DNA of 32,000 nucleotides from Candidatus Saccharimonadota bacterium (GCF_047555085.1 NZ_CP180230.1:450001-482000), one strand, 5' to 3'; counted from the stretch's first letter, positions 25,714 to 31,760 are shown. A program made the numbers and translations. The notes: generated by a model not told the origin, from the letters alone.

Positions 25714-26578
25714 AACGTGTCTCGTAGTCATTTTTCTCTGCAAAATACTTCAGAACTTTTAACTCCGATTCAGAGGCCTTTATACGGTAGTTCGAGCTTC
25801 TTCCGCCGTATTTCTCTACTACGTCGAGTTCCTTCATCGCACGCATGAACGGAGCTGTACCTGACTCGACGTCGCTGGAGGCCAGTGCAGATCTCAGAGG
25901 ATTCTGCTCCACATCAAGAATCTCCTGCAGTGCTTCAGGCCTTGAAAGCATACTGGAGTAGACATGAGGATTACTTGTTTCCAGGGCGTCTACTCTGTCG
26001 AGGAGATATGCCAAGTCCTTGATCTCGTCTACGTCCGCATCCTCCAGGATGAAGTTTTCACTGCCGTAGCCGTTTTCGGATCTGTTCCTGACATGGCCTT
26101 CAAGTATATCCCCTGTAAAGTTTTCAGGCCTGAAACTGAATCCTTCCTCCAGTTCCTGGATGCAGTACTCCCATAACTCTTCAGGAGGATTCGAGGAAGC
26201 GTTTCTGTAATCTACAGCTTTGCGTTTCTCCACATCAGCTTTCTCCGCTAACTCCTCAGTACTGAAGCTTCTGAAGACAAGTTTCTGGACTTCATCATCG
26301 ACATCGACACGTCTACCCCACCTGTTGTACCTGTCGTTCACAAAGGCCTCTGGATCAGACAGATCAAGCACAGGAACAGTATCAAATACAGATAGTATAC
26401 GTCCTGCACGATCAATATCAACTGTCTGACGCTCGCCGTCCCTGTAATCGTATACGCTCTGTATATCAAGATTCAGGGCCTCTCTCAAGTCGGAATCCGT
26501 CTGGAAGTATACGTCGAGGCCTTCAAAGATCGCGGCCCATTCCTGGGGGTCTATATCGACGGCGAGAGACGAAACCAT
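25706..26578 (-). CDS. Hypothetical acidic protein, possibly with a C-terminal winged-helix-like region.
   Basis: 290-aa ORF. The C-terminal segment APFMRAMKELDVVEKYGGRSSNYRIKASESELKVLKYF looks wHTH-like, but the assignment is weak. Confidence 0.5.
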   Translation of the reverse strand: MVSSLAVDIDPQEWAAIFEGLDVYFQTDSDLREALNLDIQSVYDYRDGERQTVDIDRAGRILSVFDTVPVLDLSDPEAFVNDRYNRWGRRVDVDDEVQKLVFRSFSTEELAEKADVEKRKAVDYRNASSNPPEELWEYCIQELEEGFSFRPENFTGDILEGHVRNRSENGYGSENFILEDADVDEIKDLAYLLDRVDALETSNPHVYSSMLSRPEALQEILDVEQNPLRSALASSDVESGTAPFMRAMKELDVVEKYGGRSSNYRIKASESELKVLKYFAEKNDYETRFT

Positions 26579-26647
26579 ACCAGGACAGATGCGACGTCAA
26601 CAGATAAAAACACTTCCACAGTCCCTGATTTAAATCTCGGGAACACA

Positions 26648-26986
26648 GTGAATACTCAGATGGGCCTTCAGGACTATCACTGGACGCAGAAAGATCTCAG
26701 GCATACAGAATACGCCGGAAAATACGTTACACACAGCCGTGTCAACAGAAACTCTGTAGTCGAACAGCTGACACACGAGGAAGTAGATCTCGAACTCGGG
26801 GAACACACACTTGAATACGAAGGCGAGAAAATGAACGTCCGACTCGACGTCAACACCCGATGGGCCTCATTCATGTACGACGAAAAATTCGAACAGCAAC
26901 TCGGAGAAGAAAACTTCGAAGACGTCATACTCCACTTCATAACACCGGACGAATACAAGTTCCACACAGCACTCGACGGAGCCTGA
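26648..26986 (+). CDS. Hypothetical small acidic protein.
   Basis: 112-aa ORF with a GTG start. It is divergent from 25706..26578 and directly upstream of the restriction-modification gene. Confidence 0.45.
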   Translation: MNTQMGLQDYHWTQKDLRHTEYAGKYVTHSRVNRNSVVEQLTHEEVDLELGEHTLEYEGEKMNVRLDVNTRWASFMYDEKFEQQLGEENFEDVILHFITPDEYKFHTALDGA

Positions 26987-27052
26987 AATCTTCCTGAAGT
27001 AATACTAGATGATCTCCATGGACTTAGCCCACGTCCATCCTCACAGATAACC

Positions 27053-27060
27053 ATTAAAAT
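27053..27060 (+). promoter_or_regulatory. TATA-like element ATTAAAAT, about 26 nt upstream of the ATG at 27082.
   Basis: Position and composition are consistent with a leaderless promoter for the restriction-modification operon. Confidence 0.35.
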
Positions 27061-27081
27061 TCTTCACAGTAAACCACTTTC

Positions 27082-30000: not shown

Positions 30001-30792
30001 GATCTGGAGGATGAATACATAGTTGATTTATTCAAATCGCCGAAGGAATCAGATCAGATTGAACTAGAAGAAGAGAACTTAAAGAAAAAAGTTCTACTCT
30101 GTAGAGATGATCTAGAGACTGTGAAGGAAAAGGCTCCAAATACCTACGATTATATCGAGTGGGGAAGCAACCAGGAGAGAGAATCTAAGCAGAAAACTTC
30201 TGCAGGCACGCCGTGGCCTGAAGTGCCTTCGGTGAACAGTAGATCTCCTGGTTGGTGGGCTATTCCCAATATTGACCCTGTAAATATTTTCATGATCTAT
30301 GGAATCAATCAAAGATACATATTTTGGCACAGCGAAGAAGCAAAGATTAGCGACAGAAGGCTGCACATGGCCAATTTAACAACAGATAAGATATCAAGCA
30401 AGAAAATTGTTGCTGTGTTAAACTCGACTATTACGCCTTTGATGATCGAGCTGATAGGAAGAAGTAACCTTGGTCAAGGTGCTCTGGACTTTGCAACAAC
30501 AGACGCAAATGATATCCTCTTCCCAGATCCTGAAATGATAGATAGTATTGACCTACAAGAGGACACTATAGAAGACTTCTTCAATAGAGAGATAAAAGGA
30601 ATTTTCGAAGAAGTAGGTCTTGAAAGAGGAAAGCCAATAAGAGAACAGGAACCAGAAATAAAAGACGATAGAAAGAAAGTAGACGATGCCGTGTTTGATG
30701 CGTTGGGGCTTTCTGAGGGTGAGAGGAAGGAGGTTTACTGGAGTGTTGCCGAGTTGGTGAAGGCCCGGCTGGATAAAGCGGAGAGTGTATAG
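27082..30792 (+). CDS. Large single-chain Type IIG/IIL-like restriction-modification enzyme (Eco57I/MmeI/PglX-like gamma-class N6-adenine DNA methyltransferase fusion).
   Basis: - Helical-domain motifs: FMNRMMFVYFVDKKGWL and PYLNGGLF.
- YNFTIKEDSP...VAVDPQMIGYVYESL.
- FGIFYTPKEEVYFMV.
- AdoMet motif I: DPACGSGAFLVG.
- A K/E-rich coiled insertion.
- Catalytic motif IV: LLIGNPPYV.
- About 500 aa of C-terminal target-recognition region.
- A nuclease motif in the N-terminal 100 aa (DYQDEITVLLIETESLSK) is only tentatively PD-(D/E)xK-like. Confidence 0.88.
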   Translation: MASLDQKQKREKVQELLKEIDSPEKVYEFFEEIGYENSTRDPSYKRDISEFNFKEKAEDKLENIYTVLDYQDEITVLLIETESLSKTHVRYVTERLARKFNYILPIFTSDFRKYQFVFPTFDETTPGEIDIQLTTLEVDSENVFYSDADALSKIWLEEERNFPHVWNQWEKAFSIDKVTEQFFEDYQEQFFHIRGKVLEQVDDVHDAHEYTLQFMNRMMFVYFVDKKGWLEGEEGESYIQWLWDKYRKQGGLQNDSDEFYNEWLDDLFHKAFNNKFTGNPELPQEVNQSFQRAPYLNGGLFRENSLSKLDVELEDSVIEDIIHDFFERYNFTIKEDSPVDKEVAVDPQMIGYVYESLSNVAEQLEDLDKDSRKEFGIFYTPKEEVYFMVRRSLVEYLENNTGLSKNKIYKLVFAEGDEEKKETRKEFTEEELEQVKYTLQDMKSVDPACGSGAFLVGIIDVISEIFEQIEKKQGSDLNMFEAKKEIIQNSIYGVDVKDWAINASELRLFLQLLIETDIPKEEIQRKALLPNLRANLRVGDSLVQDIDGIFFDLRENQLEGITKSHMEEIQKHKSKFFEDRSKSKYDGIADIQTDEIKFFQRAIDDKIEELEEKLEEDESKQQTLNGETKEPSGNEKRQITRQKKETRKRIEKLEELKQDIIQEQDKMPMLWEVAFAEVFNNNGGFDLLIGNPPYVRQEDIAPPNMDPNNVSKQDKKDYKNKLIESVQNRMPQVEKISKRSDLYIYFYFHGLSLINDEGTFAFITSNSWLDVGYGKELQQFLCKHVPIKGIYNNKNNRSFEHADVNTVISIFGAPNFETKSFDGWEIDTDRWPETDHNAQFVTFKKPYREAVSADNMIALENDTHYDKNIQLDRSSFELYNTQDLRSVQITQGNLLEDGWQYPENYEGEAFTKGKYDGNKWGGKFLKAPDAFYKILNRASGNITELGDFMDIRSGCYSGINDFFYLDEEEVEEWDLEDEYIVDLFKSPKESDQIELEEENLKKKVLLCRDDLETVKEKAPNTYDYIEWGSNQERESKQKTSAGTPWPEVPSVNSRSPGWWAIPNIDPVNIFMIYGINQRYIFWHSEEAKISDRRLHMANLTTDKISSKKIVAVLNSTITPLMIELIGRSNLGQGALDFATTDANDILFPDPEMIDSIDLQEDTIEDFFNREIKGIFEEVGLERGKPIREQEPEIKDDRKKVDDAVFDALGLSEGERKEVYWSVAELVKARLDKAESV

Positions 30793-30795
30793 ATT

Positions 30796-31005
30796 ATGGC
30801 TCAAGCTGCTGGACCTCAAAATAGTTTTGAAAGGATTATAGAAGGGATTTTTGCACTCTTTGTGCTGTTTATTTTTGGTACAGAGGTTTTCCCTGAACTG
30901 TTGCAGACTCTAGATTATCCTCTTTCGCCTTTCGTCATCTATGGCTCTTTGTTTTTGGCAGGTGTTGCTATTCTCTTGAGTATTGTAGGTGAGTTCTCTA
31001 GATGA
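30796..31005 (+). CDS. Small 2-TM membrane protein, translationally coupled to the restriction-modification gene.
   Basis: The ATG lies 3 nt after the restriction-modification gene's stop codon. Hydrophobic helices IFALFVLFIFG and VIYGSLFLAGVAILLSIV. Confidence 0.55.
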   Translation: MAQAAGPQNSFERIIEGIFALFVLFIFGTEVFPELLQTLDYPLSPFVIYGSLFLAGVAILLSIVGEFSR

Positions 31006-31214
31006 TTAGGAACGAGATTTCTACGGGCGCAATTCTGACGATCGTATTTGCAGGTGCGTATATGGCTATTTCTACTATTTGGGGTTCAGAACTTTCCAGT
31101 CTTGGTAAGATGACCTATACTAACACAGTGTTGATTTTCCTTGCTGTGCTTGTATTTGGAGTTGTTAGAGGAGGAAATTATATCGAGAACTATATGACAA
31201 ATAAAAGTGAGTAA
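31002..31214 (+). CDS. Small 2-TM membrane protein, overlapping the previous gene (ATGA).
   Basis: The start and stop codons overlap at 31002-31005. Hydrophobic helices GAILTIVFAGAYMAISTIW and VLIFLAVLVFGVV. Confidence 0.55.
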   Translation: MIRNEISTGAILTIVFAGAYMAISTIWGSELSSLGKMTYTNTVLIFLAVLVFGVVRGGNYIENYMTNKSE

Positions 31215-31295
31215 AATTAATTGAGTTTCTATTAACTTCTTCCAAAAATTTGTAAAGGCTTATTGAGGGCCTCTCAGTAGAATAGAAGACTTTAC

Positions 31296-31760
31296 CTAAA
31301 CTTCAGAAACTACAAGTAGAAGATCCGCCAGTATCAGCAGAAGGCCTATTCCGTATATTTCTGCTGAGCTTTTACTCTGGAATTTCCGGTTGGTGACTTC
31401 TTTGTTGTTTAGGCTGGCGACGAGGATTATTACTAGGCCTGCTAGTGATAGTGTTCCTATTCGGTAGGAGAGCGGTATTGAGATGTTTCTGTGGATTACT
31501 GGTGTTGAGAGGCCTCTAAGTAATATGGCTGCAGATATTATTTCTGTTGCTGATGTCTTGGATTGAAAGTTTCCACGGCTCAGGAATGCGTTGTGTCCTG
31601 TAGAGTAGATGAAGGATGTGGCTAGGCCTAAAATAGATCCTGTGATTATCAGAGCCAGGTTTTGGTCTATCCAGGTGATCATATCTGTAGTTTTTAGAGA
31701 AAATTTTTCTTTTATCGTGGCATAAAGGTTGCAAAGATTGTAAATTTCTGCCCTTTTCAT
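31296..31760 (-). CDS. Integral membrane protein (about 4 TM), unknown function.
   Basis: 154-aa ORF with hydrophobic helices throughout. No motif recognised. Confidence 0.5.
   Translation of the reverse strand: MKRAEIYNLCNLYATIKEKFSLKTTDMITWIDQNLALIITGSILGLATSFIYSTGHNAFLSRGNFQSKTSATEIISAAILLRGLSTPVIHRNISIPLSYRIGTLSLAGLVIILVASLNNKEVTNRKFQSKSSAEIYGIGLLLILADLLLVVSEV

Follow-up and report, generated by a model that had tools for sequence, protein, structure and literature searches.

Does a stretch of DNA that lacks its genome's most abundant word betray a recent arrival? We asked this of a 32,000-nt window, the whole stretch analysed here, which covers positions 450001-482000 of a single-contig genome (G000; 1,046,238 bp, 45.8% GC). 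The top hexamer of this genome is the palindrome AGGCCT. An initial annotation had noted that AGGCCT nearly vanishes between window positions 26522 and 31341, around a gene for a large DNA methyltransferase (methylase). It had proposed a defence island acquired so recently that whatever process generates the word had lacked the time to ameliorate it. We find that the poor block is probably the left third of a mobile defence island of ~11.3 kb (genome 477045-488296, window 27045 to ~38296), with the methylase at one end and, past the window, a PLD-SNF2 helicase at the other. The reading that we favour, and consider probable as a whole, is that this island is not a fresh, unameliorated arrival.

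Scarcity of AGGCCT and its causes

AGGCCT abounds in this genome. It occurs 4131 times, while its one-mismatch neighbours have 100-560 copies apiece, and the window alone holds 129 copies against 7.4 expected from shuffles. The encoded proteins are strongly acidic, and the nearest named homologues of the methylase are from Nanohaloarchaea. Among 41 related genomes the word is abundant in only four, namely G000, the same-genus G003, G010 and G022; it is not in the remaining four genomes of the genus that were searched.

Recounting bore out the scarcity that the initial annotation described. Outside the window's two poor blocks AGGCCT occurs once per 211 bp (one per 210 bp had been reported), which predicts ~23 copies locally; exactly the five listed copies lie within 26523-31341 (27593, 27831, 27975, 28284 and 29804), and the two AGGCCT-free gaps of ~1.5 kb each are as described. 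The flanks are dense, as claimed, both upstream (25774-26517) and downstream (copies at 31342, 31435, 31510 and 31624), although two of the coordinates given for them were off by 1. The coding strand is indeed A-rich (AT skew 0.2-0.42, GC 0.41-0.44), and the sliding-window scan that had been proposed makes the block a genome-wide outlier in AGGCCT density, GC and tetranucleotide signature alike. Raw density falls 4.6-fold under the local background. Across the genome, 4.82-kb windows hold 19.0 +/- 5.3 copies; only 2.0% hold five or fewer, and these merge into ~10 regions (Poisson P = 1.5e-4 for five copies under the genome-wide expectation). The poor stretch extends past the window end to ~487-488 kb on the genome and is broken up by one AGGCCT-saturated gene of 465 bp (31296-31760). 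Gene by gene the signal is faint: the methylase gene has the 40th lowest density among 372 genes of at least 900 bp, and in a per-gene depletion test of low single-gene power only 12 genes reach P < 0.02, the methylase gene alone giving P ~0.06.

Scarcity can reflect few places to write the word or few places written, and we separated the two. An opportunity is a peptide that permits AGGCCT by synonymous codons: R-P, [QKE]-A-[FLSYCW], or [codon ending in A]-G-L. The ratio of opportunities observed to those expected from amino-acid composition (O/E) measures enrichment at the peptide level. G000 offers 5.1 opportunities/kb, of which 73% are filled, at O/E 1.73. The other rich genomes behave alike: 6.2/kb, 76% filled and O/E 1.86 in G003; 5.5/kb, 74% and 1.78 in G010; 4.0/kb, 56% and 1.41 in G022. 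The motif-poor G002, of the same genus, has 2.7 opportunities/kb, 14% filled, at O/E 0.96. Because O/E is 1.41-1.86 in AGGCCT-writing genomes and 0.96 in G002, the native genes of writers have been reshaped down to their peptides, unlike those of the island. Counted over genome 476677-488296, the island offers 2.5 opportunities/kb (26 against 23.4 expected, O/E 1.11), a number that fits naive expectation (P = 0.25) and misfits the native one (P = 0.01); the methylase gene offers 2.4/kb (9 against 8.1 expected).

These figures show that the scarcity stems chiefly from island proteins that are A/T-rich in their coding and rich in K, E, N and I, that offer few compatible peptides, and that lack peptide-level enrichment. 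The deficit breaks down as x0.75 from composition, x0.64 from absent peptide-level enrichment and x0.89 from slightly lower fill. When amino-acid composition is allowed for, 13.1 copies are expected in the block against the five found, a deficit of ~2.6-fold (P = 0.01). Exact sites as a share of exact plus one-mismatch sites, a composition-robust ratio, amount to 0.23 in the block, 0.46 in the genome and an expected ~0.05 in naive DNA.

The filled fraction tells against the claim that the block had not been resident long enough. AGGCCT stands at 17/26 opportunities in the island (65%), indistinguishable from native genes (P = 0.38) and far above the level of G002 (P = 4e-9), and at 5/9 in the methylase gene (P = 0.005 against the 14% of G002). 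That the block arrived too recently for the AGGCCT-writing process to act is thus scarcely credible to us. Such an arrival would account for the low raw density, the low GC, the A-rich coding strand and the absence of the methylase from the genus relatives searched, but not for places already filled, nor for two PLD-SNF2 sites of G000 that its closest relative's copy lacks. Moreover, truly unfilled islands exist in the same genome: a segment at 669.6-673.2 kb (0/7 opportunities), the GmrSD gene with its neighbour at 675.4-678.2 kb (0/10), and the HsdS and HsdM genes at 682.1-684.9 kb (0/8), which adjoin an HsdR gene with 6/9 filled. Two AT-rich genes at 298.5-301.5 kb are likewise empty (0/5). 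Fresh imports look like these segments; the block under study does not. A mosaic methylase gene, native over its N-terminal 1.2 kb and foreign beyond, was also considered and is not established by the counts (4/5 against 1/4 filled, Fisher P = 0.2).

Mobility and residence of the island

Evidence independent of AGGCCT supports a horizontally acquired defence island. With the word masked, 5-kb windows from 477 to 488 kb rank in the 97-99th percentile for tetranucleotide distance and, for GC (0.39-0.42), in the 0.4-2.5th. The methylase was not found in five other genomes of the genus (77-89% complete), so that one of six carries it, while G013, a member of another genus, has a 74% identical full-length methylase. 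A G013 contig (C54) aligns with G000 at 81% nt identity over 27045-29893, a match that begins 37 nt before the methylase start codon; identity is 91% over the final 122 nt of the methylase gene and 88-92% in the region of the wHTH gene. By comparison, nine syntenic core genes are 64-73% identical between the two genomes. Four-fold degenerate sites agree at 0.58 in the methylase against 0.37 in core genes (Fisher P = 4e-10).

The far end of the island tells the same story in another host. PLD-SNF2 is 94% identical in amino acids and 85% in nucleotides to its counterpart on metagenome contig L101, with four-fold-site identity of 0.57 against 0.38 in flank genes (P = 2e-6). The nine flank genes of L101 are orthologues of G000 genes at 709.9-714.5 kb (43-84% amino-acid identity), and the island therefore occupies a different chromosomal site there. 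Of the proposal of a recently acquired defence island, mobility, foreign composition, absence from five same-genus genomes and the second site in L101 uphold the acquisition; the 65% fill does not support an arrival too recent for amelioration.

A comparison of synteny with close relatives, also suggested at the outset, gave a mixed answer. In G003 the flank markers stand 5.7 kb apart and enclose other genes, an unrelated AGGCCT-rich MoxR/DUF58 cluster, but the left marker is just 39% identical and may be a paralogue, so that the case for an indel is weak. Neither flank gene had an exact match at the protein level, and a metagenome scan found no relative of the left-flank protein.

Could the locus instead be ancient and native, its motif poverty a product of protein composition and purifying selection, and its genes lost in relatives? 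Constrained core regions have the same motif signature, its fill is near-native, and a HEPN-MNT pair and a 112-aa open reading frame (ORF) are lineage-typical at ordinary orthologue identity. We nevertheless judge this improbable, given a silent-site similarity to other genera far above that of core genes, the different locus in L101, identity among alleles that varies segment by segment, the outlying tetranucleotide and GC values, and presence in a single genome of six.

Individual AGGCCT sites record part of the island's history. Three of the five methylase sites, all in the N-terminal 1.2 kb, stand at identical codons in motif-poor G013 and contig L130. Four of six PLD-SNF2 sites are common to L101; the other two are specific to G000, where L101 has the same peptide in other codons. 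On L101 the host flank is empty (0/18 opportunities filled, no copy in 10 kb), in contrast to the island part, where 11/35 are filled and 13.8 kb hold 12 copies (P = 0.0014). On contig L099 (1.7 copies/kb), native neighbours are filled at 8/9 and 8/11, and the methylase and PLD-SNF2 module at 5/10 and 3/6. Read most simply, these patterns point to an island that passes between writer and non-writer nanohaloarchaea with an intermediate AGGCCT load. Its DNA would have a foreign origin and move to this day; it would have spent long in AGGCCT-writing genomes, either in this lineage or in a donor of the same habit, and would have taken AGGCCT scars into non-writing genomes.

The donor clause deserves separate weight, for the island might have been imported recently from a different nanohaloarchaeon that writes AGGCCT, its sites written there and the island new to this genome only. 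Most sites are older than the split from the copies in other genomes, the same-genus AGGCCT-rich G003 has no island, and the AGGCCT-enriched host of L099 carries the module at 50% fill, all as such an import would predict. However, we see no near-identical donor copy: the nearest methylase is 75% identical in amino acids overall, and the best DNA matches are 81% (methylase) and 85% (PLD-SNF2). Peptide-level enrichment, to be expected in a gene of long residence in a writer, is also absent (O/E 1.1), though constraint could account for that. On balance we hold a recent import from a writer to be unlikely, and keep long residence in AGGCCT-writing genomes as the favoured account.

Several points weigh against that account. 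Numbers are small, with 26 opportunities in the island and nine in the methylase gene. Motif data alone can neither date the island nor prove its foreignness, because strongly constrained native regions share its low O/E and near-native fill: one at 48-68 kb, 91% conserved, shows O/E 1.18 with a fill of 0.72. PLD-SNF2 is itself highly constrained (94% of amino acids but 57% of four-fold sites identical). The comparison relied on metagenome bins and contigs, among which a mis-binned contig is possible. The island ends show no tRNA (within 20 kb) and no flanking direct or inverted repeats of at least 14 nt, and no integrase domain occurs among the island genes. The defence role and the activity are predicted from the genes, and the absence of a nuclease in the methylase, described below, rests on non-conserved residues and a matchless fold search.

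Parts of the island and the word elsewhere

The limits first drawn for the block do not coincide with those of the island (Table 1). The left 520 bp, which hold the 112-aa ORF, are flank, and the unit continues to the PLD-SNF2 gene outside the window. Homologues of this ORF are found close to HEPN-MNT pairs in G022 (59% identity) and G010 (48%), and it is lineage-typical flank that the transferred block did not include.

Table 1. Features of the AGGCCT-poor stretch and the island (window positions unless marked as genome positions).
Feature	Position	Strand	Remarks
AGGCCT-poor stretch as first reported	26522..31341	n/a	5 copies in 4.8 kb
112-aa acidic ORF	26648..26986	+	flank; outside the stretch common to G013:C54
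Island left edge and conserved 2.85-kb stretch	27045..29893	+	81% nt identity to G013:C54, another genus
Predicted Eco57I/MmeI-family methyltransferase gene, 1236 aa	27082..30792	+	9 opportunities, 5 filled
Methylase gene, N-terminal 1.2 kb	27082..28290	+	normal density, 4 AGGCCT copies
Methylase hypervariable target-recognition region	29545..30585	+	not alignable at nt level with any relative
Conserved cassette: last ~70 methylase codons and both mini membrane genes	30586..31203	+	78-87% nt identity in five metagenome contigs
Gene for 69-aa protein, two transmembrane (TM) segments	30796..31005	+	start 4 nt past methylase stop
Gene for 70-aa protein, two TM segments	31002..31214	+	ATGA overlap with 69-aa gene
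Orphan gene, 154 aa, four TM segments	31296..31760	-	AGGCCT-saturated: 4/4 opportunities, O/E 2.4, 4 copies in 465 bp
Start of degenerate Doc/Fic gene	31769..32000	+	first toxin-antitoxin-like cargo gene
Toxin-antitoxin-like cargo	to genome 484931		past window
PLD-SNF2 gene	genome 485069-488296		past window; 4.3 kb downstream of methylase

Between the methylase and PLD-SNF2, G000 carries the two mini membrane proteins, the four-TM orphan, two Doc/Fic genes, a wHTH gene, DUF7718 and a HEPN-MNT pair. The coupled pair of small membrane-protein genes noticed initially stands up well. Both are real genes linked to this methylase allele: six metagenome contigs repeat the methylase end with the 69-aa gene behind it at 78-87% nt identity, and all four that are long enough also carry the second mini gene next. 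The four-TM orphan had no homologue in the 24 family genomes searched. It is saturated with AGGCCT yet without a homologue, and density of the word therefore does not track gene conservation. The same follows genome-wide from a flat test against G022, a complete genome of the family: genes with a homologue there carry 3.89 copies/kb and those without 3.55, with fill of 0.74 and 0.71 and virtually no difference in O/E, and the word therefore does not track simple conservation.

About 0.8 kb right of the island lies a candidate small RNA (L013:17105-17245, + strand; genome 489105-489245). It spans ~135 nt, its DNA is 77-78% conserved across the genus, and it is also found in G010 and G022. Four hairpins are followed by a T-run, with seven covarying pairs in five sequences; the candidate had no Rfam match and overlaps the 3' end of a 106-aa ORF that may be spurious. 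Within the island no Rfam family was found.

AGGCCT had been put forward as a built-in marker of native versus foreign DNA, and as such it is a useful but ambiguous flag. Poor windows do point to flexible and defence loci. Genome-wide they include a pilus-type locus, a glycan-synthesis island, giant surface proteins and defence loci, but also 23S and 16S rRNA, ribosomal-protein regions and RNase J, which has no AGGCCT copy though it is 82% identical to its G022 counterpart. The initial annotation had held that poor stretches scattered at random through core genes would count against its reading; rRNA, RNase J and ribosomal-protein regions are indeed poor. Raw scarcity thus flags defence, surface-glycan and S-layer genes together with rRNA and constrained core genes, and only the filled fraction of compatible places separates fresh from old imports, which yields a simple internal clock with truly naive segments of the same genome usable as controls.

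Three further poor loci illustrate this range. The window's other poor block (4344-5120, - strand) holds a gene for a 258-aa Mrr-family (Type IV) restriction endonuclease (Mrr_cat E = 1e-27, GC 0.37) with 1/3 opportunities filled and no homologue in G022. A second defence island, at genome 675358-691976, comprises GmrSD (0/6 filled), a Type I restriction-modification (R-M) operon and a tyrosine integrase. The contrast between HsdR and HsdS plus HsdM in this operon (Fisher P = 0.009) marks a sharp age boundary, which suggests that the specificity and methylase genes were recently replaced. At genome 167724-174120, two adjacent ~1000-aa S-layer-like genes (S_layer_C) are poor, with 4/13 opportunities filled; G022 matches just 15% of their length, and they are probably fast-turnover surface genes.

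Other members of the family shun the word. G020, G021 and G024 strongly avoid it, with 55-97 copies per whole genome against 344-491 of the reversed control word, so that within one family AGGCCT spans ~5-fold under- to ~10-fold over-representation. The avoiding genomes G020 and G024 carry C5-cytosine methylases. We found none (PF00145, the only methylase class looked for) in any of the four rich genomes, and a Dcm/Vsr-type origin of AGGCCT is unsupported by that family.

The ambiguity of AGGCCT follows a precedent, for in Synechococcus elongatus PCC 7942 the HIP1 word proved just as ambiguous. Delaye et al. 2011 (PMC3025956) used HIP1 scarcity together with atypical composition to call recent xenologues, and reported rDNA and ribosomal-protein genes to be HIP1-poor too. 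The HIP1-poor islands and the present one share a hyper-abundant palindrome that forms in place and is rare in horizontally acquired genes. They differ in that the word here is the hexamer AGGCCT, the host is archaeal, and the island's synonymous places are 65% filled. By the measure of few copies for length the present locus would pass as a xenologue (methylase gene rank 40/372, 4.8-kb window in the lowest 2%), but the synonymous places that a recent xenologue should still have empty are not (5/9 and 17/26 filled). Palindrome scarcity as a xenology marker was thus already established for HIP1; separating opportunity density from fill is a step taken here, not in PMC3025956, and a useful by-product.

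The methylase, its helicase partner and related systems

The 1236-aa protein is predicted to be an Eco57I/MmeI-family DNA methyltransferase that acts on N6 of adenine and belongs to the gamma class. It contains both motif I (VDPACGSGAFL) and motif IV (GNPPYV), matches Pfam Eco57I (E = 7e-26) and PADLOC REase_MTase_IIG (E = 1e-48), and has more than 7000 relatives of ~1230 aa spread over archaea and bacteria. Weak TaqI_C and M_Eco57I_C matches, with PF22837 precomputed for the family, point to a C-terminal recognition domain. Residues 901-1236 share 34-51% identity with any allele, no nearer than to distant archaeal and bacterial members, and the closest allele changes from segment to segment along the methylase. 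Such mosaic alleles fit recognition-domain exchange.

The initial label of a Type IIG enzyme captures the methyltransferase motifs and recognition domain but may not fit the rest, since there is no recognisable nuclease motif and a separate PLD-SNF2 partner. Among 119 family members surveyed for nuclease residues, only E80 is conserved; the candidate D (69/71) and K (82) are not, and lysine positions 123/128/130 are E/E/D in the G000 methylase. No Pfam nuclease family matched the N-terminal part, and Foldseek with an AlphaFold model of residues 1-406 (predicted local distance difference test score, pLDDT, 78) returned no PDB match at E < 0.2.

The partner is a 1075-aa protein with PLDc_2 at residues 111-186, SNF2-rel_dom and Helicase_C. 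Its best PADLOC model is 'HKD+Snf2' C3a139 (E = 5e-52), and it also matches the HmaA model (E = 2e-26). A PLD(HKD)-SNF2 helicase of ~1050 aa lies downstream of the methylase in all five readable loci: G000, contigs L099 and L101, a Methanosuratincola genome (L138) and a Nitrospirota genome (L139). It follows the methylase directly in L099; in the other four, cargo intervenes, elsewhere comprising DUF365, HigB with HTH/M78, or MNT with a HerA-like gene, small and often toxin-antitoxin-like. To judge from these arrangements, the gap appears to be a recurrent cargo slot that takes up unrelated small genes in different phyla, and the functional unit, a two-gene module akin to restriction-modification, is most likely methylase plus PLD-SNF2. 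In such a unit the methylase would tag self DNA at an asymmetric site, and PLD-SNF2 would translocate on unmarked incoming DNA and cut it. What was called a Type IIG enzyme would accordingly be read as the methylase half of a widespread putative methylase and PLD-SNF2 module.

A broader interpretation, which we offer tentatively and consider rather doubtful, has two separate parts. AGGCCT would act as a two-speed residence recorder, with fast synonymous fill, slow peptide enrichment and sites that persist in non-writers, and methylase-[cargo slot]-PLD-SNF2 would be an undescribed two-gene restriction system. If so, nanohaloarchaeal defence islands could be ordered by residence time, from 0% fill (Type I HsdS/M, GmrSD) to 65% (this island), and the direction of transfer could be read; for contig L101 it would run from a writer to a non-writer. 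Specificity parts (HsdS/M and the methylase recognition domain) would be those most recently exchanged within single R-M operons, and a module found from nanohaloarchaea to Nitrospirota would double as a toxin-antitoxin landing pad.

The module overlaps several known systems. Like Type IIG and MmeI-family enzymes (Eco57I, MmeI), the methylase is a large single chain with a gamma-class methyltransferase (Pfam Eco57I, MmeI_Mtase), a weak match to the MmeI helicase-spacer and a variable C-terminal recognition domain; unlike them, it lacks conserved N-terminal PD-(D/E)XK residues and is always paired, in the five readable loci, with a separate PLD-SNF2. With DISARM class 1 it shares a methylase that matches DrmMI (E = 2e-21), a helicase that matches DrmD (E = 2e-48) and a PLD nuclease. 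Unlike DISARM, it fuses PLD and SNF2 in one protein and is missing the core DrmA and DrmB (DUF1998): no DUF1998 was found, and the sole DrmA model hit falls on the SNF2 region of PLD-SNF2. As to BREX, the PglX model NCBIfam BREX_1_MTaseX reaches 58 bits where the cut-off is 500, and PglZ and BrxC were not found among the methylase neighbours.

The Type-2 BREX-related (Hma-like) systems of Rakesh & Krishnan 2026 (PMC12839542) combine a DUF499 ATPase, an N6-methyltransferase, an HKD-Swi2/Snf2 helicase and DUF3780, and their proposed logic is that the methylase shields self DNA while the HKD-helicase restricts. The island has two genes and a cargo slot instead, with no DUF499 ATPase or DUF3780 (neither Pfam nor PADLOC matched one among the island genes). 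It resembles these systems in setting an N6-methyltransferase beside a helicase with an N-terminal HKD/PLD endonuclease and a Swi2/Snf2 core.

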